Shown one piece after another: positions 1,568 through 45,360 of a stretch of 45,690 bases of DNA. The notes under the pieces are model-generated. The model worked only from the letters and a program-made list of their open reading frames with translations, was not told where the DNA came from and made no database searches. Positions within the stretch are counted from its first letter, which is position 1, and each line of letters opens with the position of its first letter. Made by a program: the position numbers and the translations under genes. Origin of the DNA: a virus (taxonomy: Duplodnaviria > Caudoviricetes). The stretch is from positions 1-45,690 of the IMG/VR virus record IMGVR_UViG_3300006893_000012; one strand, 5' to 3'.

Positions 1568-1643
1568 AGCGGCGATCCTTCCGAAAGTACTGCCAGTGGC
1601 ATGTTCCCTGACAGCTTTCGAAAGGGTCGCCGCTTTTTGTTTT
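1568..1643 (+). terminator. Long hairpin with U-tract after int
   Basis: AGCGGCGATCCTTCCGAAAG (1568-1587) pairs with CTTTCGAAAGGGTCGCCGCT (1615-1634), followed by TTTTGTTTT. Confidence 0.55.
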
Positions 1644-1652
1644 GGAGGATCT

Positions 1653-2024
1653 ATGGAACCGATTGAGCCTGACGAAGAAGCCTATCGTAACGTTGAACAC
1701 GATTACCCAAACGAACCCCCTGCTGAGAAATACCGGCTGGCGCAGGCTGACACGCTGATCCGGCTGAGTGGTGGGATGCGTCAGAAAGATGGCAGCTACG
1801 TGACAACCGAAATGAAAAAGAAATCGACCCTATATCGCACCGCAGTCGAGGAAGCGCAATTCCGGCTGGATCTTGTTCTGCAACTGATCGGCGCTGGTGA
1901 CGATTTGCCATCGCCGCTGTACGATGCGCTGATCTCCTATCGTGAGAAGTTGCAGGATTTTTTGCACGACCCCGCGAACACGCCCAACCCGTTTGACTCG
2001 TTGTTCCACAGGCACAGGCAATGA
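1653..2024 (+). CDS. Hypothetical protein (123 aa)
   Basis: GGAGG RBS before ATG 1653; ATGA overlap with the next gene. Confidence 0.7.
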   Translation: MEPIEPDEEAYRNVEHDYPNEPPAEKYRLAQADTLIRLSGGMRQKDGSYVTTEMKKKSTLYRTAVEEAQFRLDLVLQLIGAGDDLPSPLYDALISYREKLQDFLHDPANTPNPFDSLFHRHRQ

Positions 2025-2275
2025 AAAAGAAATCTGTTGCAGAAAAGTTTCGCGATGATTTAGCGGCTGCAATCAAGCGGTCCACAGCCACCGGCAGTGA
2101 TCTCGTGGTCCGCAACGTCCACGGTGCGATTGAAGCCGCCAGCATAAAAATGGGCGGCGATGAGGAACCAGGACTGTTCACGTTCAAAGACGGCAGCACG
2201 CTGGATGTACCAACACTCGAATTCACGCCGGCGCGGAAGAAAGCGAAAAAGAAGATAAGGAAGACAGCCCGCTGA
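2021..2275 (+). CDS. Hypothetical protein with basic C-terminus
   Basis: Translationally coupled ORF, 84 aa. Confidence 0.65.
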   Translation: MKKKSVAEKFRDDLAAAIKRSTATGSDLVVRNVHGAIEAASIKMGGDEEPGLFTFKDGSTLDVPTLEFTPARKKAKKKIRKTAR

Positions 2276-2356
2276 AGACACGAGGGCAACGGAGCGGAGC
2301 CCAGATCAAACAGGGAGCACCCTGTCGCTCTCGTGTTGAAATTTTCAGTATTGTAA

Positions 2357-2400
2357 CACCAGCCAACGAAGGCGAAAGCAACGCGCCGGTAGAGAAGCCC
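2357..2400 (+). ncRNA. Solitary TIGR-like guide unit (candidate stand-alone small RNA)
   Basis: caccAGCCA-acgaaggc-GAAAGCAACG-cgccggta-GAGAAGCCC has the same 9/8/10/8/9 geometry as the arrays; it is preceded by TCAGTATT and runs into a terminator. Confidence 0.65.
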
Positions 2401-2430
2401 CGATTCTCGGATCGGGGCTTTTAGTTTTTT
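2395..2430 (+). terminator. Rho-independent terminator
   Basis: AAGCCCCGAT-tctcgg-ATCGGGGCTT followed by TTAGTTTTTT. Confidence 0.85.
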
Positions 2431-2446
2431 GAATAAGGAGTCCGCC

Positions 2447-2806
2447 ATGTCTGAAGCAACTGATCCTTTTGAATTGTGGATGGAAAAACGCAAAGCAAAA
2501 CATGAACGGGAGGAAGCCGAAGAAGCGGCGAAGCCAAAGGTGATTCCCGACCACATCGTTCCAGCCAAGTTCAAGTTCAACCTCGGTGAATATGTCCGTG
2601 ACGCCATTACTGGAAAGAAGGGTTACATCGTCGTCAGGACCGAACACGTCTCAGGTTGCCTCCAATATTGGTTGACTGCTAGAGGCGACGGCGCACAAGT
2701 CACGCAGGACCGGATCATAGACGAGTCTCGCTTGGAGCGCACATCCACGCCGCCGTTTGAAATAGCGAAGGACGAAGCGCCCGGCTGCGTGGCGATCAAA
2801 CTTTAA
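2447..2806 (+). CDS. Hypothetical phage protein
   Basis: AAGGAG RBS before ATG 2447; SH3-like beta segment (FNLGEYVRDAITGKKGYIV). Confidence 0.7.
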   Translation: MSEATDPFELWMEKRKAKHEREEAEEAAKPKVIPDHIVPAKFKFNLGEYVRDAITGKKGYIVVRTEHVSGCLQYWLTARGDGAQVTQDRIIDESRLERTSTPPFEIAKDEAPGCVAIKL

Positions 2807-3825
2807 CGTGTCCTGAATTTCTTCCGGCCCTTTCGCCAACCAGGGCGGCCACCGTTCGGTGATATCTCCGGCAGGTTTAGCGGGGTGACAATCTCCCGCA
2901 AAGTTTTTATGTCTGGGCGATATTGTTTATTCTCTCTCAGGAACTTGCCGTAGTTGGTGGCCCCATTGGGCCGCACCGTCTCCAGCAAAATCGTGATCAG
3001 CGTAGAGCGGAACGTCCGCACACTGCTGACGGCGATCACATCTCCCGACAATATCCCTTCGACGCAACGCCGGGCCAAAATCGCTGGGTTCAGTTCTCCG
3101 GCCTGAATCAGTTGGCGCAAGAATGCGCTCATGCAAACTGAAACGTACCTCGACTCGGGCTCCTCTGGCCCACCTGAGTCCGGCTCTGGCCCCTCGCGCT
3201 CGATCATCTGCAGATCCTCGGCAACCAACGCGGGGTCCAGATTGTCGAGCGCGGAATTGTAATACCACACGCGCAGATCAATCGGAACGCGGTTAAGGTT
3301 CAGAAGATTCTGAATTTCGGTTTCCAACCAAACACGTTTCGTTTTCAAGGTGATCAGCACTTTCGCACGGCTGGCGAACATTTCTCCGACGATGCCGCAG
3401 AAATTCTTCAATCTCCCGGTGATTATCCGGACAAAACTTCCGGTTGCGATACCGGCGCTGCGGGATTCGAACGCTTGCTTGGAGCGCGCAATGGTCTCCT
3501 GCACATGACCGTCTTCGACGGCAATAATGTCAGAGCTGTGTCGCGTGTCGTTCGCCGTCAGTAGACCATTGACGCCGGTGACAGTCTTCAGTTTCAAAAG
3601 TGCCGGTCGGTCGAGGGAACGAAGGTAAATGAATGGGCTGAGCAATTCGAAAATGCCGAGATCCCGCCTACCCAACGGTATGAACATTTCAACGGGAGAT
3701 TCGCCGAACAGAGAGGGTATACGTTCGACGACACGGGCAAGGGTTGGTTCAGGGTGGTCGGATAATTCCAGCGCGTACCAATCACGACCGGCAAGCGACG
3801 ACACATCGTTAAGGTGAAGAAGCAT
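2803..3825 (-). CDS. NusG-family transcription antitermination paralog with C-terminal extension
   Basis: NGN-like N-terminus (DWYALEL...MFIP...PFIYLR...TGVNGLL) and KOW motif (GSFVRIITGRLKNFCGIV), plus ~160 extra aa. Confidence 0.8.
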   Translation of the reverse strand: MLLHLNDVSSLAGRDWYALELSDHPEPTLARVVERIPSLFGESPVEMFIPLGRRDLGIFELLSPFIYLRSLDRPALLKLKTVTGVNGLLTANDTRHSSDIIAVEDGHVQETIARSKQAFESRSAGIATGSFVRIITGRLKNFCGIVGEMFASRAKVLITLKTKRVWLETEIQNLLNLNRVPIDLRVWYYNSALDNLDPALVAEDLQMIEREGPEPDSGGPEEPESRYVSVCMSAFLRQLIQAGELNPAILARRCVEGILSGDVIAVSSVRTFRSTLITILLETVRPNGATNYGKFLRENKQYRPDIKTLREIVTPLNLPEISPNGGRPGWRKGRKKFRTR

Positions 3826-3994
3826 CTTCGACCAGTTTCTTAATCATCGCCTTGGACTCCGGGGATACCAGAGAGCGGTAGTAAGCCGACTCGAATTTCT
3901 CCAGCCTTTCCAGCCGTTCTAGTATCTCGATGTACGCAAGAGCGGGATTGTCGAGATAGCGGTTGATTGCTTGTTGCTTTTGTCCTTGTGTCAT
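3809..3994 (-). CDS. Hypothetical protein (61 aa)
   Basis: ATGA overlap with the upstream ORF; overlaps the start of the NusG-like gene. Confidence 0.55.
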   Translation of the reverse strand: MTQGQKQQAINRYLDNPALAYIEILERLERLEKFESAYYRSLVSPESKAMIKKLVEDASSP

Positions 3995-4179
3995 TCGTCC
4001 ATCTCCCGAGTTTCCTCGATTCTGCGTACAACCTTCCACGGATCAAAGAACCTGTTCAGCCTTTCAGCGAACTCTTCCCAACTAACAATGTTGGCTTTCA
4101 TCGCCTTCAGCTCGTCGGCGGTGATAGTTACATTGTCGGGGCAGAAACCGAGCATGGACTTTAATACTGAGAAGTGCAC
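3991..4179 (-). CDS. Hypothetical protein (62 aa, MHFSVLKS...)
   Basis: AAAGGA RBS then GTG at 4179; the longer 4455 start lacks an RBS. Confidence 0.55.
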   Translation of the reverse strand: MHFSVLKSMLGFCPDNVTITADELKAMKANIVSWEEFAERLNRFFDPWKVVRRIEETREMDE

Positions 4180-4247
4180 TTGTCCTTTCGTAATATGCGA
4201 TGCACCAATGTGTCTGGAGATGTTTAGGAGGGAAGGCGTAAACAGGA

Positions 4248-4291
4248 AATAAGCCAGTGCATCGGAACGCAACAGGAGGTTAGAGCAGCCA
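4248..4291 (+). ncRNA. Solitary TIGR-like guide unit in the divergent control region
   Basis: aataAGCCA-gtgcatcg-GAACGCAACA-ggaggtta-GAGCAGCCA; loop identical to 9021-9030 and final edge identical to the array consensus. Confidence 0.75.
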
Positions 4292-4642
4292 TTTGGGCGC
4301 ACGACGACTATTCTTTGGGTGTGGGGTGTGGACGGAGTCCACGAGAAAATACACCACAAGGTCGCTATCGCGTTGGCTGGACTGGTTCGCCGGGTGTGCT
4401 GTGAGTGTCTTGCAGGGTATCCTAATTGTTCAAACTTACTGCGCACCCTCACCACTCACAAATTGTTGCTGCGAAGCCCCGCTATTTTTCTGACCAAGGT
4501 CGTCACGTCGGGGACGTTGCCTGGATTTACGGGTGTCCAACTCGCCTCCGGTTCTACTTGATGTGGGGTCCGATGCACTCTGTTTTCTAGAGTTTTAGTT
4601 CCACAATCGCGGCGTATGACCGGCTGCCATGTCATAAGACCG

Positions 4643-4720
4643 ATACTGACTTTCGGTCTCTAACACGGGGTTTGGAAGTAAAAAAAAAAGAGTTTTGCGG
4701 TTCTGCGTGAAAGTCAGTAT
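4643..4720. promoter_or_regulatory. Outward-facing 12-bp inverted repeat (GAAAGTCAGTAT), putative divergent promoters or operators
   Basis: ATACTGACTTTC at 4643-4654 and GAAAGTCAGTAT at 4709-4720, with an A10 run (4680-4689) between them; lies between divergent operons. Confidence 0.5.
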
Positions 4721-4881
4721 GTAATAAAGTACGCAACTGGATTGGGGTATGGGGGCGGCACCCGCCGCTCCCTTCGCTAAGCACAGTCACCGTACAGCGA
4801 ACCCGATTCCTCAATGTTGCTGGCAAATTTCCGTTTGCAAGCCGTGGGAAAACCTCGTTCGCAGAAAGGTCGCTCCCTTTT

Positions 4882-5634
4882 ATGGACGATCAGAATGTCA
4901 ACCAGCAAGACCCAAACCGTATGGCGGACGTGGCTTTCGAGCTGCCCGCTGACAACGGCAAGGCGACAAAACAGGCTGTCGCTTCCGCCGCCGAATTCCC
5001 CAAGCCCGTGCTCGTCCCGAAGAAAACAATGTTCGAAGGTGCCAGCCGCCGCAGTGCGGAACTGGCTAAGAAGGGTTCCACTTCCAGCAGCCGTACCGGA
5101 AAGGCGAAGCAGGTTTCGTTCGAATTCGGTAAGCCGCCGAAGAACGTCTACTGCAAGACCCACCCGGACCCTGCCTACCATGCTTTTAACCTGCCGGTGT
5201 ATTACAACGAAGCCGCACGGAAGTTCTCGTATGTCCCTCCGGAGCTGTACGAATCAGGAACGCTGCCGTCGCGGTTCCACGATGCCATCAAGTTGATGGA
5301 TGTTCACACGACCGGGTTGGCGGACGGCACCTTTATTTTGTGGTTCGTCTTCGTCTCCGGCAGCCCGTGGCGCAAGTCGGCAGAGAAGGTGATCCAGGCG
5401 GCTGCGCTGCAGTTCGGCATCGTCGGCTCGATTCCCGTCCGGCAAACCTACACATGGGAACCGGCGACCGATCCCATTCCGGAACCGAAGTGGGCTTCTT
5501 TGCCCGAGTTCGAAAGCCTGCTGCTCGGCGCTTTTGACTCCGTGGTGAACGTCGTCGAAGACAAAGTGGTGACCGACTTTATGTCCGGTGGCGTGACCGC
5601 AGCGGAAGACCGTGAGGGCGGCGAAGGTGAGTAG
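4882..5634 (+). CDS. Replication-associated protein, possibly single-stranded DNA-binding
   Basis: Directly upstream of and overlapping polA; aromatic beta-rich core; acidic C-terminal tail (AAEDREGGEGE). Function inferred. Confidence 0.55.
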   Translation: MDDQNVNQQDPNRMADVAFELPADNGKATKQAVASAAEFPKPVLVPKKTMFEGASRRSAELAKKGSTSSSRTGKAKQVSFEFGKPPKNVYCKTHPDPAYHAFNLPVYYNEAARKFSYVPPELYESGTLPSRFHDAIKLMDVHTTGLADGTFILWFVFVSGSPWRKSAEKVIQAAALQFGIVGSIPVRQTYTWEPATDPIPEPKWASLPEFESLLLGAFDSVVNVVEDKVVTDFMSGGVTAAEDREGGEGE

Positions 5635-7519
5635 CCTGCCTGCGGAGCGGTTCCCTTACGTGTATATCCCTGACACCGAGTTCCAGGTGGTGGACGGGGA
5701 GCAGCAGAAGCCCGTGTCGCTGATCGCGCACGGTTACAACAGGGCGCGGAGGGTCGAGATGTTCTTCGACTCTCCGCAGCAGTGCCCGTTTCCGGATCTC
5801 GATAACACCCTGTTCGTCGGATACAACCTGCCCGCCGAGTACCAAACGATGCTGGCATTGGGTTGGCCGCTGCCCGTGCACTCCATCGATCTCTATACCG
5901 AGTACCTGAACGAGATCAATGGAGTATGGCGGGGTAAAGAATCCATGAAGGACATTGGCACCGGCCTGCAGGACGCAGTGCGTGAGTATGGCGGGAACCT
6001 GATGGAGTTTTGGACTACCGACAAAGAAGCCGAGCGCGACTACATTATTGCGAACGGCACGGTCCCTCCCGCAGGCGTCAGCCTCGAAGACCACCGCAAG
6101 CGCATCCTTCGTTACAACGAAGAGGACGTGGCGGCCACCGTCTGGCTGGCGAAGCGGATGTTGCCGGAGATCGACATCGAACAGGCATTGTGGCGCGGCA
6201 AATACTCACAGGCCACGGCCTTCTTCCAGCATAACGGCGTGCCCATAAACCGGGAGAGGTTCCGCATTATCGAGAGGGAAGCCCGGCACCTGAAATTGGC
6301 AATCGCCAAGAAGATCGAGGACACCCACAACTACGGCGTCTACGTGGTCGAGGGTCGCGAGGATCTGAAGAACAAACCGCACGCGGTTTTCAAGAACGAC
6401 AAGTTCGCGGCGATGCTGGAATCGAAAGGCATAACGGTCGGGAAACGGGGCGCATGGAAAGTCACGCCCACGGGCCTGCCGATTCTCGAAGACGATTACT
6501 TCGATGGGATGTGCAATGCCTATCCGGAGCTGCAACCGTTGCGCCAGTGCCGCAAGTCGATCAACTCTCTCGGTCGATTCAGCACGCAACTCGGAGCTGA
6601 CGGTTTCAACCGTGCGCCGATGTGGATGTTCGGCACCGTAACCGGGAGAAATAACCCCAAGGCCAAGGCGTTCCTGTTGTCCCGACCGCATTGGGTGCGC
6701 AACCTGTTGACGCCTCGGGAAGGCATGGCGCTGATCGTTTGCGATATCACCGGCGCAGAGGATTGGCTGGCAGCGGGTTTCTCCGGCGATCCAGAATTAA
6801 TGAGGATCTACGCCAGTGGGCTCGATTCGTATCTCGAATTTGCGATTGCGTGCGGGGCAGTTCCACCTGGAACGTTGCGTGACAAAAAGAACCCCGAACT
6901 GGAAGCGATCCGTGCCATGCACAAGACAGCGAAGCTGGCGATTGCTTACGGCGTTTGGGCGCACACGCTGTCGCAATATCTTGGCGTCCCGGAGTGGCAG
7001 GCGTCCGCAATCATCAACGCGCACAAAGCGGCTTACGGCGTTTACTGGCAGTGGACGGAAGATCGTGCAAAGTTGGCCGAAGATCAGGGGTTTGTAATCA
7101 CCGACTATGGATGGCGTCAGTCCATTGAACACATGTCCGATAACTCCATCCTGAACTTCCCTCAACAAGCCGGTTGCGCCGAGTTACTGCACATGGCTTG
7201 CAACCTATTGGTGGAGTGCGGTTGGGGTTACGCGATGTCGGCTCCACACCATGACGCTCTCTACATGCACGTGGAAATAGAACGCGCCGAGGAATGTAGA
7301 CAGGCCGTGGAGGATGCTTTCATCGAAGCGGGTAACCGAATCATGGAGCTGCCTGAGTTTCCATTGAAGGTGCACAGCGAGATTGTGCGGTATCCAGAAC
7401 ATTACAGCGATCCGGACGGACGGGAAATCTGGGACATTGTTTCAGAGTATTTCCAGTGGGACAACTTCGAAATGAAGGAGGAAGTTGCAGATGAGCGAGT
7501 ACTCGCGAACAACGGCTAA
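5627..7519 (+). CDS. polA: Family A DNA polymerase (3'-5' exonuclease + polymerase, no 5' nuclease)
   Basis: ExoI DTEF, ExoIII YNEED, TGR, motif A CDITGAE, motif B KTAKLAIAYG, NFPQQ, motif C HHDAL; GTG start at 5627 preferred. Confidence 0.92.
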   Translation: MSSLPAERFPYVYIPDTEFQVVDGEQQKPVSLIAHGYNRARRVEMFFDSPQQCPFPDLDNTLFVGYNLPAEYQTMLALGWPLPVHSIDLYTEYLNEINGVWRGKESMKDIGTGLQDAVREYGGNLMEFWTTDKEAERDYIIANGTVPPAGVSLEDHRKRILRYNEEDVAATVWLAKRMLPEIDIEQALWRGKYSQATAFFQHNGVPINRERFRIIEREARHLKLAIAKKIEDTHNYGVYVVEGREDLKNKPHAVFKNDKFAAMLESKGITVGKRGAWKVTPTGLPILEDDYFDGMCNAYPELQPLRQCRKSINSLGRFSTQLGADGFNRAPMWMFGTVTGRNNPKAKAFLLSRPHWVRNLLTPREGMALIVCDITGAEDWLAAGFSGDPELMRIYASGLDSYLEFAIACGAVPPGTLRDKKNPELEAIRAMHKTAKLAIAYGVWAHTLSQYLGVPEWQASAIINAHKAAYGVYWQWTEDRAKLAEDQGFVITDYGWRQSIEHMSDNSILNFPQQAGCAELLHMACNLLVECGWGYAMSAPHHDALYMHVEIERAEECRQAVEDAFIEAGNRIMELPEFPLKVHSEIVRYPEHYSDPDGREIWDIVSEYFQWDNFEMKEEVADERVLANNG

Positions 7520-7712
7520 GCATGCAACGGTCTGCCCACGGTGCAAGGGCTATATCTCAGTGGGCACAACAATCGTATTGGGTGAAGGTTCGAAGAAATG
7601 GACGCATGCCGTGTGTCCAGGAGTTGACGTGCTTATTAAGCCGCGCACTGAGGAAGAGATGAACGCAAGGGTGACTGTGTTTAAGTTCAACGACAAAGGA
7701 GAACTGATCTGA
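7491..7712 (+). CDS. Small zinc-finger-like protein
   Basis: CPRC...WTHAVC; AAGGAGG RBS. Confidence 0.65.
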   Translation: MSEYSRTTAKHATVCPRCKGYISVGTTIVLGEGSKKWTHAVCPGVDVLIKPRTEEEMNARVTVFKFNDKGELI

Positions 7713-7851
7713 TGGGTGACGGGGAGATGGATCCTCTTTGCCGGTACGAGTGTTCAGCTTCAAACAAAGAATATTACATCGGTAATATTGACAACCGCAT
7801 TTTCGTTGTGAACGGAATTCACGGAGCGTAAAAACAATTGGAGCAGCCATT

Positions 7852-8019
7852 ATGAAACGGATAACAATTAGCGACGAACACACAGGCAACGAGTTCGATG
7901 ACGACTTGTTGGAACTTATGCAACAACCGAACACGCCGCCTCAACCGATTAAGAAAATCAAATTAACCGCCGAGCAGGTGAAGGAACTGATCAAAAGCGG
8001 CACCGTAAGCGGTGTGTGA
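7852..8019 (+). CDS. Small hypothetical protein (55 aa, MKRITISDEHTG...), below the ORF track cutoff
   Basis: GGAG RBS, ATG 7852, TGA 8017-8019; read by hand. Confidence 0.5.
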   Translation: MKRITISDEHTGNEFDDDLLELMQQPNTPPQPIKKIKLTAEQVKELIKSGTVSGV

Positions 8020-8211
8020 GTTTACCTGAGCAAGTGAACGGGAGCGTGGCTCGGCGTCCGCACCATACTTGCGGATTGTTTTTCACGCCCCGTAAGCGGT
8101 CTTGTCCGTACCGTCCATAGCAATGCGACACGCAACTCCGGCGCATGGAGCACGGGTGGGCTGTTGTTCTCTCCAATTGACAGTGCCACCTAAATTTACT
8201 CAGGAGTGGTT

Positions 8212-8574
8212 ATGGCTAACACACAAATTCCCGCACAGTCTGAAGTGCAGCCCGTGCCGGGACAGCAAGCATTAGGTTTCCGGATCAAGTCGGTCTCCGT
8301 CTCGTTGGATCTCAGCTCGAAAGTGTACGGCACGGGTCCGGCAAGTTACGCCTCGTTAAACTCATGGGTTGACGGCGCGACCTTAGAGCAGCTTCCGGAT
8401 GTGATCGACGCAGGTATGGATCTTTTCGTGGCTGCGTGGCGGATGCTGATCAGTGCGCAGTTGGCGACAAAGTTAACCAACGAACCGAGTGAAGAATATA
8501 AAGCGCTGTTGGCGAAAGTGGATAAGCGACTCAAGCGAGTTAAGGAAATGTTACGAGAACAACCTTCTTCCTAG
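8212..8574 (+). CDS. Hypothetical protein immediately upstream of the array
   Basis: CAGGAG RBS; 120 aa. Confidence 0.7.
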   Translation: MANTQIPAQSEVQPVPGQQALGFRIKSVSVSLDLSSKVYGTGPASYASLNSWVDGATLEQLPDVIDAGMDLFVAAWRMLISAQLATKLTNEPSEEYKALLAKVDKRLKRVKEMLREQPSS

Positions 8575-8583
8575 TAAACCACA

Positions 8584-9047
8584 AAGCAGCCACGCAGCAT
8601 GAACGCAGCATTGAGCAAGAGCAGCCATTCATTGAGAATGCCGCCGCGAGTGAGCAGCCGAATAGGGACGAACGCAGCAGGCCCGGTGAGCAACCATTGA
8701 AGCAGAGAGCATAATTCATCGTGAGTAGCCAGCATAATCGACCGCAACGTCAGCGAAGAGCATCCATGTGGGATGACCGCGCCATTCATCTTGAAAAGTC
8801 ACTATGCCCGATAGCAACATGCATCCGGAGCAGCCAAAGCAACGTGAAAGTACCAGAACACTAGAGCAGCCACCCGGTCAGAAAGCGTCATTCAGCAGGA
8901 GCAGCCACGAATCCAGAACGTATTATCAAAGGAGAGCAGCCATCCAGGGCGAAAGCCGCAATCAACAAGAGCAGCCATACTGCGGGAGTGCGACAGTCAT
9001 CTAGAGCAACCAATGCAGGAGAACGCAACAGTCAGTTGGAGTAACCA
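8584..9047 (+). repeat. TIGR-like dual-repeat guide array 1 (13 units)
   Basis: Edge repeat ~GAGCAGCCA starts at 8584, 8619, 8652, 8688, 8723, 8758, 8793, 8828, 8864, 8899, 8934, 8969, 9004, 9039. A loop repeat ~GAnnGCrnCA lies midway. Spacers are unique and mostly 8 nt. Confidence 0.9.
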
Positions 9048-9068
9048 ACTTTATACAGGAGTCAAAAG

Positions 9069-9962
9069 ATGTCATCCACCACAACTGTGGTAGAAACCGT
9101 AGCCAATCCGTCATTCGAAGCCATTCATAAATTAACGAGGGATCTGAAAAAGGCAGCCGTCACTCTCACTCGCACCGAAGCGAGGTTTCTCGTTGACAAC
9201 TACTACACCATGCAAGATAACCGTATTCGCACTGGAGGTCAGATCCGCGAAATGGAATCGATCAAGGAACCTCACGAGGTTTTGAAATGGTTCAACACGC
9301 AGGATGAACTTTTGGAGAATGAAGTCAAGAGGGCGCTGGATTCCTATTCCAACGGGTTTGTCCTCGGGCGTTGGGCTCGCTCCCTGTATGGAATTGGTCC
9401 CGTTATCGCTGCGGGACTCCTGGCGCATCTTGATATCGAAAAGGCCAAGGGGGCGGGCGCGTTCTGGCGCTTCGCTGGTCTTGATCCGACGAGCGAATGG
9501 AAAAAAGGTGAGAAGAGGCCTTGGAACGCGGCGCTGAAAGTCTTGTGCTGGAAGGCTGGCGAGAGTTTCGTCAAGACTTCCGGTCGTGAAGGTGATATTT
9601 ACGGGCATTTGTTGATCGCTAAGAAGGATCTCCTCACTTCGCAGAACGAGGCGTTAATGTTCAAGAATGCTGCAGCAGAAGTTTTGGTGCGGGTCCCGAA
9701 ACATGCACAGGCTTCAATCTACAAGACGGGGAAGTTGCCGCCCGGCCACATTTTCAGTCGGGCAAAGCGTTACGCTGTGAAATTATTTCTGGCACATTAT
9801 TTTGAAGTTTCGTGGTGGCTGAAATACAACTGCGCGCCGCCAATGCCCTTCATCTTCACAGATCAGGCTAAGGCCCTCGGTCTCGATCACAGCCATTGGC
9901 TCCACGCTCCGAATTTTCCGATGGCGGAAAATCTGCCTGAGGGTTTACCCAAACTTCCATAG
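9069..9962 (+). CDS. TasA-like Nop-domain / IS110 C-terminal-like RNA-binding protein lacking a nuclease domain
   Basis: Coiled coil then SLYGIGPVIAAGLLA...FWRFAGLDP...WNAALK...HIFSRAKRYAVKLFLAH, the IS110/IS116 Tnp-C / Nop fold pattern. No N-terminal DEDD RuvC domain and no HNH. Flanked by arrays. Confidence 0.85.
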   Translation: MSSTTTVVETVANPSFEAIHKLTRDLKKAAVTLTRTEARFLVDNYYTMQDNRIRTGGQIREMESIKEPHEVLKWFNTQDELLENEVKRALDSYSNGFVLGRWARSLYGIGPVIAAGLLAHLDIEKAKGAGAFWRFAGLDPTSEWKKGEKRPWNAALKVLCWKAGESFVKTSGREGDIYGHLLIAKKDLLTSQNEALMFKNAAAEVLVRVPKHAQASIYKTGKLPPGHIFSRAKRYAVKLFLAHYFEVSWWLKYNCAPPMPFIFTDQAKALGLDHSHWLHAPNFPMAENLPEGLPKLP

Positions 9963-9973
9963 CCCCTAACGTA

Positions 9974-10319
9974 GATCGCGCCAATGAGAGAGAGCAGCCA
10001 TGACCATAGAAAGCGCCATGAAGTACGAGCAGCCATCACGGAAGAATGCCGCATGGGACTGGAGCCGAGCCAGAGTATTAGAACGCACCAATTCGATGGA
10101 GCACCCAGATCCAGCGAGAGCGCCATAGAGAATGAGGATTCAGGTTGTTCGAATGTGCCAACGTCAATGAAAATCCAATTCTCATGAAAGCAGCACAACG
10201 TCGGAGAAATCAAAGCATTGGATTGCAGCAGGGTGCGCGAGTTAGCCATGGTGAAAGATCGCGCCGCAGTGTAAGAGCAAGCCAACTGCTCTGAAAGTCC
10301 CAATTACTTGGAGTGGTCA
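9974..10319 (+). repeat. TIGR-like dual-repeat guide array 2 (9 full units plus a leading partial unit)
   Basis: Edges at 9992, 10027, 10062, 10099, 10134, 10169, 10204, 10239, 10275, 10311; loops such as GAAAGCGCCA, GAACGCACCA, GAGAGCGCCA; all spacers 8 nt. Confidence 0.88.
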
Positions 10320-10326
10320 GCGATAC

Positions 10327-10355
10327 AGGGGGTGGCTTCGGCTGCCCCCTTTTTT
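10327..10355 (+). terminator. Rho-independent terminator closing array 2
   Basis: AGGGGGTGGC-TTCG-GCTGCCCCCT followed by TTTTT. Confidence 0.9.
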
Positions 10356-10385
10356 CTGTCTACCGGGCGCTTGAGTAGGTGCCCT

Positions 10386-10598
10386 ATGCAATGTCAGCAA
10401 GTTATTAGCGTTACGCACGCCCCCGGCGAAACCGAGGCCGACGATTCCGAGGTAGTTACAACCTGTTCCGAAGAGGTCTTCGAAATCGTTGATGGAAACT
10501 CTTTGTGTGTAAAACATGCGCAGCATTCGAAGAGGACGAAGACCCATCACGAGACTTACGATCCCGGCTGGACTGAAGAGTATGAAATTGATGGCTAA
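10386..10598 (+). CDS. Small Cys/His-containing hypothetical protein
   Basis: ATG 10386 after the terminator; C...C...LCVKH. Confidence 0.5.
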   Translation: MQCQQVISVTHAPGETEADDSEVVTTCSEEVFEIVDGNSLCVKHAQHSKRTKTHHETYDPGWTEEYEIDG

Positions 10599-10600
10599 TC

Positions 10601-11695
10601 TTGTCGCCTCGAATCCTGTTTCTTCTCAAGTACCGCGATTGCCCTCCAACGCAGGGGTTCGTCCCAACTAAAAACGGACTCTCCAGCGGCCTGCTGAACT
10701 CTGCGCGCTTCGTGGTAGACATGTTGGGCTCTGCACACTTTGCCGTGAAGTTAGTTCAAGTAATTGACAACAACTCCATCGACCGTGAAGTCCATCTCTA
10801 CAAACCCACGCATGTAATCATCGAAGCGCTCTGGTGCCAGCCTGATAAATTCACAATCCTCCAGAAACTTCATCCCACTGTCAAATGGATCGTTCGCGGC
10901 CACTCGGACATTCCCTTCTTAAGTCAGGAAGGCGTTGCCCTTGAGTGGATCACTGGCTATATGAAGTACGAGAACGTCAGCTTTGCTTGCAATTCTGTGA
11001 GATCGTACCGTGACATTCGAGCGCTTGTGATGTCGCAAGCTCCTTTGCTGACGCCTACAGCTCTTGATCGCAAGATTCTGTTTCTTCCCAATTACTATCC
11101 CGATCACAGACATCAGCTCCGGCGCAAACAGGTCGATGGCTACCTCGACATTGCTTGCTTTGGTGCGATACGCCCGCTCAAGAATCAACTGATCCAGGCT
11201 GTGGCCGCGACGGAATACGCCAGACGATCTAACCGCAGGCTGCGCTTTCATGTCAACGCATCGCGCACTGAACAACGTGGCGATAATGTTCTGAAGAATC
11301 TGCGCGCTCTGTTCGCATCAACCGGCAATGAGTTAGTCGAACATCCTTGGATGCCTCATCGCGAGTTCCTTCACATTTTGTCCGGCATGGATTGTGCCCT
11401 TCAGGTTTCGTTCACTGAGACTTTTAATATCGTGGCGGCAGATGCGATCAGCGTAGGCTTGCCCATCGTTGCAAGCGATCAGGTGAGCTGGCTTAGCCCG
11501 CTCTCAATGGCTCAGCCGACCGATTCGAACGACATCGTGGATAAACTCGTGTTGGTGAACCGTCCGTTCTGTCGTGGAATAATCAACGGCGCGAACCTTC
11601 GCGGATTAAAGCAGTACTGCGACAACAGTAGAACGGCGTGGCTGGACTACTTCAACGTGGGACGTTCAACAGTCTCATCTGTACAAGGATCATGA
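10601..11695 (+). CDS. GT-B fold glycosyltransferase (GT4-like)
   Basis: CFGAIRPLKNQ and SFTETFNIVAADAISVGLPIVAS resemble the GT4 nucleotide-sugar binding signature. Confidence 0.8.
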   Translation: MSPRILFLLKYRDCPPTQGFVPTKNGLSSGLLNSARFVVDMLGSAHFAVKLVQVIDNNSIDREVHLYKPTHVIIEALWCQPDKFTILQKLHPTVKWIVRGHSDIPFLSQEGVALEWITGYMKYENVSFACNSVRSYRDIRALVMSQAPLLTPTALDRKILFLPNYYPDHRHQLRRKQVDGYLDIACFGAIRPLKNQLIQAVAATEYARRSNRRLRFHVNASRTEQRGDNVLKNLRALFASTGNELVEHPWMPHREFLHILSGMDCALQVSFTETFNIVAADAISVGLPIVASDQVSWLSPLSMAQPTDSNDIVDKLVLVNRPFCRGIINGANLRGLKQYCDNSRTAWLDYFNVGRSTVSSVQGS

Positions 11696-12970: not shown

Positions 12971-14611
12971 ATGGCGAACGCCCCTTCCCGCACGGTCAGT
13001 CTGGACAATGCTTACGAACCGTATCCGCATCAACTGGAGCTGCACCAGTCCACTTGCCAGAATTTAGGCGCTATCGGCGGCAACGGTTCGGGTAAGTCAG
13101 CCTTCCTGCTTTGGCACGCGATCCTGAATTACGCCCTCCGGTACGAGGGTTGTGATTCCCTTCTCCTGCGCCGCAACTTCCGCGAACTCGACAAAGGTTT
13201 GATCTCCGATTTGAAGAACATCGGCCTGACTTATAACCCCGATGGTCAGTTGTGGAATTGGAACGACACGAAACACATCGCCACGTTTTACAACGGCTCC
13301 AAGATTTATTTCGGCCACATGGAAAATGGCGTCGAGAGAGATTTGCACCAATACCTTTCGAGTAGTTTCTGCCTGATCGGTGTAGACGAGGCCGGGCAAA
13401 TCTCTTACGGTGGCGCGGACTTCCTCAAGTCCAGAAACCGAGTCAACCCTGGTTGCAAGCCGGATGCCGAGGGTAACTTCCCTCTGCCGCAGTTTGCCAT
13501 CGCCACCAACCCGCTCGGTCCAGGTTGGGGTTGGATTCGAAAGCTCTACCTTGATAAAGAACCTTTCGAGAAAACAGACGCAACAATCAAAGACGACAAC
13601 GGCTATTGGTGGGTGCAAGAGGCTGGTAATTGGATTTGCGTTTACAACCCGACCGAGTACAAGAGCACTCACAGCACAATTTTAGACAACCCGAACTTAA
13701 TGAGTCGGGACCCAGGTTACATCGCCCGTCTCCAAAAGCTGTCTCCCGCCCTGCGTGCCAAGGCTCTGTATGGCGATATCAACGCGGTTTCTGGTCAATA
13801 CTATTCGAATTTCGAACCAGCGTTCCATGTCATCAACCTGCGCCGCGATCCGGAAGCGATCAAGTGGCAAGACTTTCAGCCACGGTGGATCGGCTGGGAT
13901 TTCGGCATCGGGCACTATTCCGCTGTCTACTTCATGACCCGAGCCCTCGTCCGGAAGCTGGATGACAGCTACAAACCGTGCGTTGTGGTCTACCGGGAAA
14001 TCGTCTGCAACGAGACTTCCAGCCGGGATCTTTGCAAGCGCATCGCCGCTTCCATGAGACCTAACGGTGGGGTCGCTGCTTTGGAGCGGGGCGACAAAAC
14101 CGAAGAGAAGATCCAGCATATCTTCTTCTCCCATGAAAAGTTTAGCCGCACAGGGACGGATACTGAGCACCGTCCGGCAGACGATGTTACTCGGGAGCTA
14201 AGGCATTGGGGTTTACCTCCAGTTAGTCGAGCGAGCAACGACCGTGTTGCGGGCGCGGTCCTCATCTACAACATGCTCGAACAGGGCGACTTGGTGTTTC
14301 TGGATTCCTGTACGGAAATCATCGCCGCCCTTCCCGCACTACAGCGCAACGTTGCCAATCTTGAGGATGTTCAGAAGACCGAGAGTAGGGCGGACGATTG
14401 CTTCGATGCTCTTAAGTATGGGCTGCTTTCAATGCTTCATCCTCGCAAAGCCAGCGAGCTGAGCGTTATGCAAACCCAAGCCGCCAAGATCGAAGACCAC
14501 ACGGCGAAGTTTTTCTTTTACGCAAAAATGCAGAAGCAACTCGCTGCCAAGAACGACACCGTGAAACCCAAACGTATTCCGATTTGGCAAGCAAAACTGG
14601 AGAACCGATGA
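12971..14611 (+). CDS. terL: Terminase large subunit
   Basis: Walker A GGNGSGKS, Walker B IGVDEAGQ, motif III ATNP, nuclease acidic motifs GWDFG and DDCFDALKY. Confidence 0.93.
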   Translation: MANAPSRTVSLDNAYEPYPHQLELHQSTCQNLGAIGGNGSGKSAFLLWHAILNYALRYEGCDSLLLRRNFRELDKGLISDLKNIGLTYNPDGQLWNWNDTKHIATFYNGSKIYFGHMENGVERDLHQYLSSSFCLIGVDEAGQISYGGADFLKSRNRVNPGCKPDAEGNFPLPQFAIATNPLGPGWGWIRKLYLDKEPFEKTDATIKDDNGYWWVQEAGNWICVYNPTEYKSTHSTILDNPNLMSRDPGYIARLQKLSPALRAKALYGDINAVSGQYYSNFEPAFHVINLRRDPEAIKWQDFQPRWIGWDFGIGHYSAVYFMTRALVRKLDDSYKPCVVVYREIVCNETSSRDLCKRIAASMRPNGGVAALERGDKTEEKIQHIFFSHEKFSRTGTDTEHRPADDVTRELRHWGLPPVSRASNDRVAGAVLIYNMLEQGDLVFLDSCTEIIAALPALQRNVANLEDVQKTESRADDCFDALKYGLLSMLHPRKASELSVMQTQAAKIEDHTAKFFFYAKMQKQLAAKNDTVKPKRIPIWQAKLENR

Positions 14612-20928: not shown

Positions 20929-20950
20929 AAAGGTTGTTGTTTGCCATAGT

Positions 20951-20994
20951 CCTGCGGGGGTCTGATTTCCCGTCTACCCCCGCAGGTTGTTTTC
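20951..20994 (+). terminator. Hairpin terminator after the capsid gene
   Basis: CCTGCGGGGGT / ACCCCCGCAGG followed by TTGTTTT. Confidence 0.65.
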
Positions 20995-21008
20995 ACTCAG
21001 GAGATTGT

Positions 21009-21350
21009 ATGAGCACTGTAATTGACCGTCGCTCCAAGTACGACGGCACGCCTCGTCAGAAATCCAAAACAACTTATGTCCCTCTCAACGACCGTGTACT
21101 TTTGCGCCGTGTCGAGGACAAGACGGAATCCCTCGTCCAGATTGCCGATACCTACCAGCAGCCCAGCAACAAGGGCGAAGTGGTGGCGGTCGGGGACGGT
21201 ATGTTGCTGGGTAACCACCTTGTTCCGATCCCACTGAAGCCCGGCGATGTGTGCTTGTTCGGAAATTTCAATGCTGAGGAAATCACGCTGGACGGCGAGG
21301 ATTTCATTTTGGTTTCGGCTTGGGATGTCCGTTTGAAAGTGGTGAAGTGA
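21009..21350 (+). CDS. groES: Co-chaperonin GroES (Cpn10) homolog
   Basis: PLNDRVLLRR...KGEVVAVGDG...LKPGDVCLF...ITLDGEDFILV. Confidence 0.9.
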   Translation: MSTVIDRRSKYDGTPRQKSKTTYVPLNDRVLLRRVEDKTESLVQIADTYQQPSNKGEVVAVGDGMLLGNHLVPIPLKPGDVCLFGNFNAEEITLDGEDFILVSAWDVRLKVVK

Positions 21351-22912: not shown

Positions 22913-23707
22913 ATGGCTGTTATCGACGCACTTGGCTATCCACTTGTAAGTGACGTAATGATTTTGGCACGTGCTCATGTAAATGACACGCAGCCCGGCC
23001 TCACGGACAGTCCTGGTGAAGGTCAAATTCTCACGAATGATCCGTTGATCTCCCCGTTTACACTACCCTTTCTGAACTCTGCCATCCGCACGCTGCACAG
23101 GGATTTGGAACTCAGCGGCAGCCCTTCAATCATTCGAGACAATGTAATTGTGACCGGACTTACTCCGGTGAACGGTCCTATCGGGCTCGGATTGCAAGAT
23201 CCCGATATTCAAACGAGCCTATCTTATGTTGGATACGATGATGGTACTACTGTCAACACTCTTATTGTTCTTCCTGCTGATGTCCTTTCGGTCGAAGCCG
23301 TAAGCGAGCGCATGTCCGGCACCACGGATTTGTTTATGCCGATGCGCGAAGTGCAGGCCGGAATTTCCTCCAGGTTGCAATCGAATACATTCGGGGTTTG
23401 GGAAACACGCGGAGATGCGCTCTACTTCCCCGGCGCTCTGACTACTCGTGACATCCGACTGCGCTACTACGCCAGCCTCCCGCTGGTCGATCCCAATTCC
23501 GATTTCACTCAAACCTCCGTCACGATTTTGGACAGCACCGACGCATTGGCCTACATGATCGCCGCCCGTTACTCGGCGGCCCGTGGCGGATTGGGTGCCG
23601 GTACGTTGGAACAGAAAGCCGCCACCGAAATCATGAAGATCAAGGCGCGTGAAATCCGGCGTGCGCAGTCTGTGACGTATCACCGCCATCCATTTGGAAG
23701 GGTTTAA
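22913..23707 (+). CDS. Putative head-tail adaptor / tail tubular protein A
   Basis: Position, and helix-beta-helix layout (FLNSAIRTL...LRYYASLP...[11 protein letters not shown]). Confidence 0.55.
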
Positions 23708-37973: not shown

Positions 37974-39299
37974 TTAGATTGGCATAGAGTGTGAGCGCTG
38001 GATTTTGTTTACCCTTCGGAACGCTTCTTTGAGTTCGGGAGAGCTGGTAGTAAGCGCAGGGTTTGCCATGAGAGACTGAATCACTTCGCGAATTGCGTGC
38101 AAGTACCAGCCTTCTTTATCATCTAAATCGACTCGCTTCATAAAAAGAATAAATTCTTCCATTAGAATCCTGTGGGTATCGCCGCGCGCGATGAACGCGG
38201 CTTCTTCGAGAGCATCCCGTAACGATTCTTTACCTAGGCGCACAACAAATCTTCGCTCAAAGGCCCATTCAATCGCAGGGATCACTATTTCGCGGTAGTC
38301 TATCTCTGGCAGGAATATCCCGCGCGTAAGCATCAGTTGCATAAATCGCTCAGAAGCAAATTCCAGCGTTTCCTTATCCGAATAAACTACGTCGTTGATC
38401 TTGGCGAGTAACAAATCGCGTTGACCAGCAGGCAAATTCATCACTTCGCCAGCCGTGAGTGATTCGATCTGAAAGGCGATTTCATGGAGCTGTCCGTGTG
38501 TAAGGAGTTCTGACAGCGGACGAGTGGGAACTTGCAATGCGCCTGAAAGCAGAGAATTGAATGTCCTCACGGATTCGATACGACGCACTTTATCGTCGAT
38601 GCAACTGTTGATCAGATCGTCGATAGCAGGCGGAATGGTTTCGTTTGCAGTTGAAAGAGGCTCGTAAACTCCGTGGCGCATCGAATGGCCTGCAAGAGCC
38701 TCATAGAGAGTCACGCCCAAGGAATAAACGTCTGTCCGTTCGTCTACTGCTTCGCCTGCATGTTGCTCAGGAGACATGTATCCGGGAGTTCCAACGACGA
38801 ATCCGGATTTCGTCAACTTTCTGCCATCTTCAGCCGAAATAGCAATTCCAAAATCAACTAGATAGGCAGACTCCTTGTTGGGGGTGATGATTATGTTTTC
38901 TGGCTTTACATCCCGGTGGATGATGGCGAGTTTGTGAGCATAGTCCAGCGCTGAAGCGAGTTGATGAAACCAAAGACGGGCTTGATTTATTGGAACTGGA
39001 CCAGAATCGCTAATGATTTGCCGGAGTGTTACGCCTTCAATGAACTGAAAGATAATTAGAAACTTTCCATCATTGAAATCCACGTCGTAAATTGCGGGAA
39101 TGTTCGGATGGGACATCTTGGCAAGCGTTCTAGCCTCTCGCCTAAATCTTTCCCGGTCCGGTTCGCTAGATTGGTCCAGCAGCGGACTAAGGACTTTTAC
39201 CGCAATGTCCCTGTCAAGAGTATTGTCTTTGCCATGGATGACTTTGGCAAAGCCGCCAGCACCATGAATCTCTGTCTGGAAACTAAATCGTTCCGCCAT
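37974..39299 (-). CDS. Hanks-type Ser/Thr protein kinase with helical C-terminal domain
   Basis: GAGGFAKV, IAVK, HRDVKPEN, DFG, GTPGYMSPE, DVYSLG. Confidence 0.95.
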   Translation of the reverse strand: MAERFSFQTEIHGAGGFAKVIHGKDNTLDRDIAVKVLSPLLDQSSEPDRERFRREARTLAKMSHPNIPAIYDVDFNDGKFLIIFQFIEGVTLRQIISDSGPVPINQARLWFHQLASALDYAHKLAIIHRDVKPENIIITPNKESAYLVDFGIAISAEDGRKLTKSGFVVGTPGYMSPEQHAGEAVDERTDVYSLGVTLYEALAGHSMRHGVYEPLSTANETIPPAIDDLINSCIDDKVRRIESVRTFNSLLSGALQVPTRPLSELLTHGQLHEIAFQIESLTAGEVMNLPAGQRDLLLAKINDVVYSDKETLEFASERFMQLMLTRGIFLPEIDYREIVIPAIEWAFERRFVVRLGKESLRDALEEAAFIARGDTHRILMEEFILFMKRVDLDDKEGWYLHAIREVIQSLMANPALTTSSPELKEAFRRVNKIQRSHSMPI

Positions 39300-40314: not shown

Positions 40315-41814
40315 GTGATCCTACAGCGTGAGATAATTCCCGCCGTGCCCAGTAAACCTTCCTCGCTTCTCGATACCCGTGTCATCTATTGCGGCGACAA
40401 TCTGGAGCAGTTGAAGAAACTGCCGGATGCCTGCGTTGACCTGATTTACATCGACCCGCCGTTTAACTCCAACCGCAACTACGAAGTGTTCTGGGGCGAG
40501 ACGAAAGAGAAACGCTCATTCGAGGACCGTCACGAATCCACACAAGCCTATATCGAATTCATGCGACCGCGTTGCGTAGAACTGGCGCGGGTGCTTAAGG
40601 AAACGGGCAGCTTTTACTATCACTGCGACTGGCACGCCAGCCACTACGTCAAAGTGATGCTTGACCAGATTTTCGGGGAGAACAACTTCCAGAATGAGAT
40701 CATCTGGAAACGAACCAGTGCGCGAAGCGATTCCAAGAGATACAACACAATCCACGACACGATATTTTTCTGTACGAAGGGCGAAGACTACGTTTGGAAC
40801 AAGCAATACGAGCCTTACGACCCGCACTACATCGAGGAGTTCTACACGCACGTTGATCCTGACGGCAGACGGTGGAAACGCGGCGATTTGACCAGCCCTA
40901 ATCCACGTCCTCGCATGATGTACGAGTTTAAGGGCTATCCGTCGCCAGCGAAGGGCTGGCGCTTCACGAAGGCTCGGCTAGAGGCGTTAGATCAGGCAGG
41001 AAAAATTCACTATCCAAAAGACCCAAACGGTGTCCCGCGCTTCAAGTCCTATCTTGACGAAATGCCGGGAGTTCCGCTCCAGACGGTATGGACAGACATA
41101 AGGCCGCTTCATAACCTAGCAGCCGAGCGCTTAGGTTATCCGACCCAGAAGCCGCTCCAGTTGCTCGAACGCATTATCAAGTCCAGCAGCAATGAGAACG
41201 ATATCGTGCTTGACGCATTTTGCGGGTGTGGCACGGCGTTGGTCGCTAGTCAAAATCTTGGCCGCCAGTGGATCGGAATAGATATTTCCCCCACTTCATG
41301 CCGTGTCATGGCAAAGCGACTGCGGGACGTATGCCGATTACCGGAAGATGAAAAGTTGTGGCGCGTTGGGCGCGGCTTCGTTGTGCGTGATCTGCCGTGG
41401 AGTGAGAAACAACTCAGAGTCATCCCGCCGTTCGAGTTTGAGAACTGGGCAGTGATCGCGCTGGGCGGAATCCCGAACAAGGCGCAAGTCGGAGACATGG
41501 GTATAGACGGGCGCATCTACCCGGTATCGTCCATGCCCGCCAAGAGCGGAAAGCGAGCCGGGGAACTTGATTTTATGGATACCTGGTATCCGATTCAGGT
41601 GAAGCAAAAAGACAAAGCAGGCAGGCCGGATATTGATATGTTCGAGGCCGCGATGATGCGCGAGGATCGCCCGAAAGGATTTTTTGTGTCGTTCGAGTTT
41701 TCCTCCGATGCCCTGCGGGAAGTGGATGCTTTCTTTCGCCGGGAGCACCGCATCATCATCCCACTGACCGTGCGGGAAATCCTAGAGGAGACTATCGCCC
41801 AGAAGCTAGCATAA
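40315..41814 (+). CDS. Beta-class N6-adenine/N4-cytosine DNA methyltransferase fused to an Mrr-like PD-(D/E)xK domain
   Basis: IDPPF precedes YPTQKP and DAFCGCGT; C-terminal FEFENWAV...GDMGIDG...IQVKQ. Confidence 0.9.
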   Translation: MILQREIIPAVPSKPSSLLDTRVIYCGDNLEQLKKLPDACVDLIYIDPPFNSNRNYEVFWGETKEKRSFEDRHESTQAYIEFMRPRCVELARVLKETGSFYYHCDWHASHYVKVMLDQIFGENNFQNEIIWKRTSARSDSKRYNTIHDTIFFCTKGEDYVWNKQYEPYDPHYIEEFYTHVDPDGRRWKRGDLTSPNPRPRMMYEFKGYPSPAKGWRFTKARLEALDQAGKIHYPKDPNGVPRFKSYLDEMPGVPLQTVWTDIRPLHNLAAERLGYPTQKPLQLLERIIKSSSNENDIVLDAFCGCGTALVASQNLGRQWIGIDISPTSCRVMAKRLRDVCRLPEDEKLWRVGRGFVVRDLPWSEKQLRVIPPFEFENWAVIALGGIPNKAQVGDMGIDGRIYPVSSMPAKSGKRAGELDFMDTWYPIQVKQKDKAGRPDIDMFEAAMMREDRPKGFFVSFEFSSDALREVDAFFRREHRIIIPLTVREILEETIAQKLA

Positions 41815-44430: not shown

Positions 44431-45360
44431 TTACTGCAAATCCTTCTCTGCCTCGACCAAAAATTGAATGGCGGATGCCGTCAAGTGTAAGGCATAAGCT
44501 GCATAATGTGGGGGCACAGTTATGACCTCCGGGCCTTGCCCATGGCCGCCCTTCTTGTTTCTCAAGGTCGGCACTCCGCTTTCGAGTGTGCTCTGAAGAG
44601 CCGAGTAGTGGGACTGCAGAAAACCGGGAAGCAGTCCATTCTTGAAACAGATTTCAATCAGCGTTTTAGCTGTGTCTGTTGGTTGGAATGTCCAGCGACG
44701 CTTTGTGCAAATCGTCTTCAGAGTGCTCTCTAACGCGTTCAACGAATCGGCAAGACAATCCTTGATCTCTCCCTTGCGATAGTGTTCGTGCGCTCTCAGG
44801 AACTCATCATTGGCACCCCGATAGAGTTTGTCCTGCAGAAGGTCCATTGCTGGTTTGACAACTTGAGCATGCAGGAATTGGGAGTCGTATCGGACGATTT
44901 TGCCAGAGACGTACTGATACCCTACCCCGTGTTGTAAAAACCGGTGGTTCAAGTCTGCGACTGCTTGATGTGGCCGGAGCTTTGTACGCGCGGACCCGCT
45001 GTAGCGGCCATTATTTTCGACTGCCTTCTTCATCACCCGCAACGAAAACTCTATTGCGTCAAGCCAATACTCAACGCGCGATTCCTGGAGGAAGAAGTTG
45101 CCTAGAATCTCTCCTCCGTCGTCTCCGGGCGCGAGTATCTGCCTGCCGAAGTGCCTTACCAGTTGCTCAATGATTTCCCGATAGGCATCGTCTGCGGCTG
45201 TGACGTAACCTTCGTCGGTATAAGGCTTGCCTAAGCCGTCAAGCACAATAAGCATCGCTTGAACCCGCAGTTCCTTGGGGATCGCGTCGTACACGAAAAC
45301 GTCCGGTGCTTCACCGCGCTCCTTTTTGCGCCGAGTCGAAAATAGATCAAGAATTGGCAT
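44431..45360 (-). CDS. Abortive-infection-like protein (AbiJ-N / Abi_C HEPN type, STM4504-like)
   Basis: MPILDLFSTRRKK...PDVFVYDAIPKELRVQ N-terminus; NHRFLQHGVGYQY; HEPN-like RNKKGGH. Family recalled from memory. Confidence 0.75.
   Translation of the reverse strand: MPILDLFSTRRKKERGEAPDVFVYDAIPKELRVQAMLIVLDGLGKPYTDEGYVTAADDAYREIIEQLVRHFGRQILAPGDDGGEILGNFFLQESRVEYWLDAIEFSLRVMKKAVENNGRYSGSARTKLRPHQAVADLNHRFLQHGVGYQYVSGKIVRYDSQFLHAQVVKPAMDLLQDKLYRGANDEFLRAHEHYRKGEIKDCLADSLNALESTLKTICTKRRWTFQPTDTAKTLIEICFKNGLLPGFLQSHYSALQSTLESGVPTLRNKKGGHGQGPEVITVPPHYAAYALHLTASAIQFLVEAEKDLQ

Follow-up and report, generated by a model that had tools for sequence, protein, structure and literature searches.

Can a single TIGR unit, set between genes and kilobases away from the arrays of its own system, serve as a guide? 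The question is raised by positions 4252–4291 of the viral record IMGVR_UViG_3300006893_000012, whose 45,690 nucleotides, analysed here as a whole, are referred to as the window. Here, we describe the anatomy of this unit, its surroundings and its predicted target, and weigh the explanations for its isolated position.

The prophage and its TIGR-TasA locus

The window is a prophage that carries an integrase (242–1504), a family A DNA polymerase (5612–7519) and a large terminase (12971–14611). A metagenome record with the same DNA, at 100% identity, adds 4,592 nt of host flank; because a flank protein falls in clusters in which Acidobacteriota is the commonest phylum, the host is probably an acidobacterium. 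Cargo genes encode a GT4-type glycosyltransferase (10601–11695, directly behind the TIGR locus), a GroES-like protein (20934–21350), a Ser/Thr kinase (37974–39299), a DNA methylase (40315–41814) and an AbiJ-like/DUF7014 protein (44431–45360).

The best solved relatives of the 9069–9962 protein are TaTasR and SpTasH, with PDB 9MTY among the matches. No family match to an HNH or RuvC nuclease domain was found in this protein, and its N-terminus leaves no space for one; the protein is therefore assigned as TasA, and its profile indicates that it is intact. The lone unit thus shares its element with a cognate Nop-domain Tas protein that scores above the cut-off of NF052498, the TIGR-Tas model of NCBIfam. 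Phe261 occupies the column of the processing tyrosine, SpTasH Tyr289, and His274 that of His296; among 91 homologs, the tyrosine column holds 84 Tyr, 6 Phe and 1 Trp, and the histidine is present in all 91. A short insertion lengthens the loop at tasA residues 261–274 (window 9849–9892), and both the phenylalanine and the insertion recur in the closest homolog, P0002. TaTasR possesses a tryptophan at the same column, and its arrays are processed all the same.

The array units are built from two 8-nt spacers, a 10-nt loop and a 9-nt edge (Table 1). With its flanking arrays, tasA has the dual-repeat TIGR-TasA layout described by Faure et al. (PMC12045711).

Table 1 Coordinates of the lone units, their surroundings and the TIGR locus within the window
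Feature	Position	Strand	Details
Lone dual-repeat TIGR unit	4252..4291	+	5' edge half, spacer A, loop, spacer B, full 3' edge
5' edge half AGCCA of lone unit	4252–4256	+	read from sequence
Spacer A GTGCATCG of lone unit	4257–4264	+	8 nt
Loop GAACGCAACA of lone unit	4265–4274	+	10 nt
Spacer B GGAGGTTA of lone unit	4275–4282	+	8 nt
3' edge GAGCAGCCA of lone unit	4283–4291	+	full 9 nt
Predicted mature 35-nt tigRNA	4252..4286	+	starts AGCCA, ends within 3' edge; by analogy with synthetic TaTasR/SpTasH tigRNAs and the 35-nt array period
Exact spacer-A copy, 52 nt ahead of unit	4198..4205	−	adjacent spacer-B half 3/8
Inverted match to 4256–4271, 14/16	4564..4579	−	exact spacer-A copy 4571–4578; adjacent spacer-B half 4/8
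Small leftward gene, 54 aa	3991..4155	−	first of leftward genes ending in 2803–3825; homolog P0127, 89% identical
tasA, 297-aa Nop-only Tas protein	9069..9962	+	NF052498 175.9 bits, cut-off 100, residues 38–247
Upstream TIGR array, 13 units	8588..9047	+	two units off by one base in length, the other 11 regular; period 35 nt
Downstream TIGR array, 10 units	9961..10319	+	35-nt period
Hairpin and T run behind downstream array	~10328–10355		by eye
Second lone TIGR unit	2361..2400	+	28.2 bits, 0/1000 shuffles; 3' edge overlaps terminator
Intrinsic-terminator-like hairpin, 13 pairs, T tail	2393..2422	+	directly behind 2361 unit

Anatomy and statistical support of the lone unit

With a matrix built from the 21 regular array units, the lone units being left out, the 4252 unit scores 35.7 bits; the array units themselves, scored leave-one-out, reach 13.9–35.2 bits, all 21 below the 4252 unit. 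None of 1000 shuffled windows attained 35.7 bits, the top score being 24.6, and with an earlier 10-unit matrix the unit scored 40.1 bits, the best of 200 simulated windows reaching 20.3. A chance origin is therefore rejected, and positions 4252–4291 are a real, complete dual-repeat TIGR unit. The solitary guide unit of the original prediction is borne out by this score and by the complete anatomy, as are the features on which that prediction had relied in calling chance unlikely, namely a loop identical to the array loop at 9021–9030, a 9-nt edge and two 8-nt gaps. Among 210 pairs of array units, just one has two identical loops. Array unit 9008 comes closest to the 4252 unit, with an identical loop and agreement at 8 of the 16 spacer positions; the 4252 unit is oriented as the arrays are (+).

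Two equal 8-nt spacers lie between edge and loop repeats that match those of the cognate locus, as in a dual-repeat tigRNA unit. The 3' edge is complete and the 5' edge consists of AGCCA alone, a point that bears on processing, for which minimal arrays need full edges. A TIGR array consists of tandem units beside tas; here a single unit stands by itself, with 4336 nt between it and the nearest array unit. The 4252 unit would work like a tigRNA unit, yet it is no array. No array unit has repeats as well preserved as these, as either selection or a recent origin would give. By analogy, the mature tigRNA is predicted to span 4252–4286, its ends being taken from the synthetic TaTasR and SpTasH tigRNAs of Table S3 in PMC12045711. 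The lone unit and the upstream array each have the motif GTAAAC 8 nt ahead of their first AGCCA (4238–4243 and 8574–8579); it could be a common promoter element or chance.

When the whole window was scanned on both strands, exactly two lone units came up, 2361 and 4252, both on the + strand and both in the left arm; the 2361 unit lies 6.2 kb from the nearest array unit. No further unit was detected in the 4.6-kb host flank (best score 1.8 bits). Guide units do occur outside the arrays, as originally proposed, but on a small scale, and the distributed guide network suggested along with them does not emerge from a scan that yields two units. An intrinsic terminator, as would be expected of an array, was found behind the 2361 unit and not behind 4291. 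Just ahead of the 2361 unit, an imperfect palindrome seen in the fold (2334–2359) is possibly an operator.

The anatomy of the 4252 unit, with AGCCA at both ends, is compatible with unit mobility. In a 9.1-kb contig of a related phage from the same run, position 1638 is joined to 5813 by 1167 letters rather than 4174, with weak anchors of 21–27 nt. The stretch so bridged, 1639–5812, includes the NusG-like gene as well as the two lone units and is thus possibly accessory. The reads of one run, probably the source of this DNA, contained no sequence variants over 1900–5200.

Lone units among relatives

We compared 117 other TasA-relative loci (47 + 3 + 67 new among the best 80 of 260), the sampled TasA relatives being mostly 43–60% identical. 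Of these, 104, in 54 clusters, possess at least four units and were counted as array loci. With up to 10 kb of DNA per side, and the best 80 of 260 included, none of the 104 array loci contained an isolated unit; two flags at one locus (L109) were set aside, both having arisen from a three-unit seed in GC-rich DNA. Among 50 whole records, 44 displayed the 36-nt-type pattern, and the whole-record count equalled the fetched-locus count in 50/50. Lone units are thus uncommon in the sampled loci. Four loci (L045, L078, L097 and L105) carry separate multi-unit sub-arrays up to several kb apart, those of L097 being on both strands.

Searches of viral contigs detected no close relatives of the NusG-like protein, its homolog P0123, the DNA polymerase or the two unit patterns, and the sole match to the unit pattern in metagenomes was the same DNA as the window. 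Protein relatives were present on contigs of up to 3.2 kb, with P0122 being 87% and P0127 89% identical.

Position and transcription signals

The start of the small leftward gene is most likely at 4155, because the 89%-identical protein P0127 of a relative is 54 aa long, which places the 4252 unit 97 nt from it. An automatic 103-aa gene call on the same DNA (P0126) overlaps the unit antisense; on best evidence, the unit appears to be intergenic. The first rightward gene starts at 4882, 590 nt beyond the unit. That the unit is antisense to the leftward leader, as had been claimed, is unproven, nor is there support for a role as antisense RNA against this leader, since what TIGR spacers pair with is the two strands of DNA.

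The protein encoded at 2803–3825, 340 aa in length and with two relatives found, had been called a NusG paralog. Its N-terminal half is NusG/KOW-like; the match to TIGR00922 (E 0.0087) is far under the cut-off, and Atlas features place it at 0.85 to KOW/NusG clusters with a TM of 0.50. These values make the paralog assignment a consistent lead, if one with weak support.

A strict scan revealed no promoter near the 4252 unit. A relaxed, uncontrolled scan of 900 nt gave nine candidates on both strands, with rightward starts at ~4141 and ~4203 and a leftward start at ~4426. No known RNA family was detected at 1900–10600 except for one match at E 0.57, and neither the unit nor the sequence around it folds more stably than shuffled controls (z −0.31 for the region). 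Spacer B was also considered as an in-place ribosome-binding site and rejected, the next start codon being 13 nt off and too far. Two inverted repeats, 4643–4720 (12/12) and 4789–4870 (11/14), each with 54 nt between arms, stand ahead of the rightward replication genes.

The predicted target

In the published target geometry, spacer A is followed by the reverse complement of spacer B (described in PMC12045711). The 16-bp target so predicted for the 4252 unit reads, on the other strand, GGAGG, five bases, ATG and CAC, which looks like a Shine-Dalgarno sequence with a start codon. The strict GGAGG-five-ATG pattern occurs in 0.028% of 300,000 random 8+8 joins (a chance of 3 in 10,000), in 0/1069 guides of relatives (0.17 expected) and in none of the 22 other regular window units. 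Since it was noticed post hoc among 23 inspected units, we treat it as a lead. A looser start pattern was counted 17 times in the relatives' guides, compared with 10.3 ± 2.9 in re-paired spacers, with 5/200 shuffles as high; this enrichment is mild and confined to the published geometry, one of four tried.

No site with fewer than three mismatches was found in the prophage and its 4.6-kb flank by a search that used both geometries and allowed gaps of −1 to 2 for the window, or 0 to 2 once the flank was included. The best match, 13/16 with a one-base gap at 22915–22931, is at chance level. The nine nearest genes hold no silently recoded target for either lone unit; the best candidates need two non-silent changes, like random guides. 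Exact target matches in viral contigs amounted to six loci, four of them independent and none with DNA in common with the window; frames from that ATG run for 7–8 codons in three cases and for 67 codons inside a 236-codon frame in the fourth, and these matches were taken as chance.

No one-base overlap of the halves was seen, complementarity being 24.8% against 25.0% expected (1042 units). Among relatives, no exact self-target was found outside the arrays in any geometry, near matches resembled reversed controls, and silent-only self-matches numbered 2/751 versus 1–5 in ten controls.

Two array units also drew attention. The target of unit 8903 (8903–8942) spells a synonymous variant of tasA codons 12–17 (ANPSFE, ~9103–9118), with 12/16 positions identical, four differences that are all silent and no gap. 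Such a guide might be directed at the tasA of a kin phage; unit 8903 is one of 21 array units, 7/150 random guides find, somewhere among 43 ORFs, a site with no non-silent change, and relatives show no excess of such matches. Unit 10173 (10138–10212) finds a 14/16 match in the published geometry inside the neighbouring unit (10159–10174, minus strand); matches of this type among 3144 units number 2, compared with 1–3 in controls, and are not in excess.

A proposed stand-alone guide gene and its alternatives

Our preferred explanation, to which we give about an even chance of being right, is that the 4252 unit is a stand-alone guide gene, whose RNA TasA would take up in trans so as to repress a target that the prophage itself does not contain, perhaps where a gene begins. 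The unit would be transcribed on the + strand, and the transcript would be trimmed to the 35-nt tigRNA. The nuclease-free TasA encoded 4.8 kb off would then load this tigRNA in trans and, by binding DNA at the start of a gene outside the prophage, would bring about repression. We infer these steps of transcription, maturation and loading, as well as a translation-start target in a host gene or a competing element. The explanation builds on the observed anatomy of the unit, the match of its repeats, the cognate TasA and the lack of a target in the prophage. Several lines of evidence count in its favor: the unit is oriented as the arrays are, the 2361 unit ends in a terminator as arrays do, the predicted target resembles a start codon region, and TasA has an intact profile, with guided TasA and dead TasR reported to repress transcription in E. 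coli (bioRxiv 10.64898/2026.09.09.750476). Counting against it are the truncated 5' edge in the absence of a clear promoter or terminator, the phenylalanine in place of the processing tyrosine together with the insertion in TasA, and the lack of a target in the prophage and flank. According to PMC12045711, minimal arrays are processed solely with full edge repeats, and natural arrays too begin with a truncated edge; efficient SpTasH cleavage is described as requiring a matured guide (PMC13421893). Given the truncated 5' edge and these processing data, the RNA would need a 5' end at 4252 or close to it, unless a leader is tolerated.

The unit could instead be a recently misplaced and silent one, 35 nt having been copied or recombined from an array into an intergenic AGCC site and being as yet without function, which we think somewhat unlikely. 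AGCCA on both flanks is what a five-base duplication or a microhomology insertion leaves, although it is equally the plain look of any unit with one full edge. The truncated 5' edge and the want of a convincing promoter or terminator at 4252 also fit a silent insertion, as does the sharing of the 3' edge with the terminator stem at 2361, and the contig bridging 1638–5813 suggests an accessory segment, weakly, through its 21–27-nt anchors. Array unit 9008, with the same loop and 8/16 spacer bases, counts for this explanation too, but the spacers copy no array unit, and this best value of 8/16 is reached by 9/210 array pairs as well. There are, moreover, two lone units, both intergenic and both array-oriented, one of them exactly ahead of a terminator, which speaks against misplacement.

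Local control in cis through the spacer-A copies, by weak TasA binding at half sites or by a long-range hairpin that hides spacer A within a + strand transcript, is decidedly unlikely, and it is the half sites that keep it alive at low odds. Two more exact 8-mer copies within 400 nt occur at 6/1000 regional positions and at ~0.15% elsewhere; the inverted 14/16 match is reached by 11/600 random stretches and by 0/22 other units, with a predicted helix probability of 1.0 if one RNA spans both arms. There is precedent in that spacer A engages first in PlTasA and SpTasH, as described in bioRxiv 10.64898/2026.08.11.744272, and CRISPR mini-arrays are described as regulating through partial pairing (10.1101/2023.03.03.530964). 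The adjacent spacer-B halves, however, match at 3/8 and 4/8, near random, so that the copies are not canonical targets; guides matching through one spacer gave no cleavage in the experiments available from PMC12045711, and adjacent double mismatches abolished SpTasH cleavage in those of bioRxiv 10.64898/2026.08.11.744272. The region also folds like shuffles, and the copies emerged from inspecting four lone-unit spacers. Very unlikely, in our judgement, is a role confined to RNA, as a site that TasA binds or cleaves ahead of the rightward replication genes, in their leader, or as a decoy for the Tas of a competing phage. Such a role would suit a unit 590 nt before the rightward gene 4882 with no terminator found between, and solitary repeat units of phages are reported to serve as decoys in CRISPR systems (PMC11656645). 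With a cognate TasA in the same prophage and two ordinary spacers, however, the unit would load as a normal guide; its repeats match its own arrays, and the exact-repeat pattern gave no other phage.

Comparison with known systems

The TIGR-TasA system itself is published; the lone-unit arrangement was not found in print. FpTasA-type dual-repeat systems (Faure et al. 2025, PMC12045711; Xu et al. 2026, bioRxiv 10.64898/2026.09.09.750476), as far as these sources describe them, have the same edge-A-loop-B-edge unit, a Nop-only effector, arrays on both sides of tas, a prophage setting and AGCCA as the mature 5' end. The locus studied here differs in its single units 4.3 kb and 6.2 kb from the nearest array unit, its 35-nt rather than 36-nt period and its phenylalanine for the processing tyrosine; its 8-nt spacers are as in SpTIGR. 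The crlRNA, CreR and viral Cracr mini-arrays (10.1101/2023.03.03.530964, 10.1101/2024.10.29.618823) are likewise described as stand-alone one-guide units that steer an effector to repress, but they belong to CRISPR, whereas here the system is TIGR and the effector is the phage's own. No partial match of the lone unit to the start or promoter of tasA stood out, half matches being limited to the unit's own region. Minimal guide-like units in intergenic phage DNA are also known as viral CRISPR mini-arrays, solitary repeats and Racr (described in PMC11656645 and PMC10651486); Racr and mini-arrays aim at competitors or act as decoys, and they borrow or block host Cas; here the effector is in the same element. 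A Racr-like decoy mimics the repeat of a foreign effector; the 4252 unit matches the prophage's own arrays, and TasA lies in the prophage.

TIGRFinder, as described in bioRxiv 10.64898/2026.09.09.750476, drops clusters of fewer than four spacer intervals, so lone units would escape annotation. The available portions of PMC12045711, 10.64898/2026.09.09.750476 and 10.64898/2026.08.11.744272 contained no description of natural single TIGR units off arrays, although figs S4–S6 of PMC12045711, outside this scope, may show some; nor were lone TIGR units found in the corresponding portions of PMC13421893, 10.64898/2026.07.30.739390, 10.64898/2026.09.22.753630 and PMC12385481.

Implications for TIGR systems

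The origin of units, the acquisition of spacers and the natural targets of guides are named as open questions in PMC12045711 and bioRxiv 10.64898/2026.09.09.750476. Lone units constitute an unsampled class, because they fall below the published annotation threshold. If the 4252 unit is silent, it would be a modest footnote on array dynamics; if it is selected and expressed, lone units would make better probes of targets than array units do. Its sequence predicts that the host, or else an element co-infecting it, has a site composed of a Shine-Dalgarno sequence, five bases, ATG and CAC, and a relative with an empty site would reveal how units insert. The broadest proposal, that TIGR systems spread 35-nt units as independent guide genes and that the 4252 unit aims TasA at the ribosome-binding site, together with the start codon, of a gene in the host or a competitor, is one we regard as unlikely. 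Were it true, it would supply a natural class of TasA targets and a trace of unit movement and array birth.
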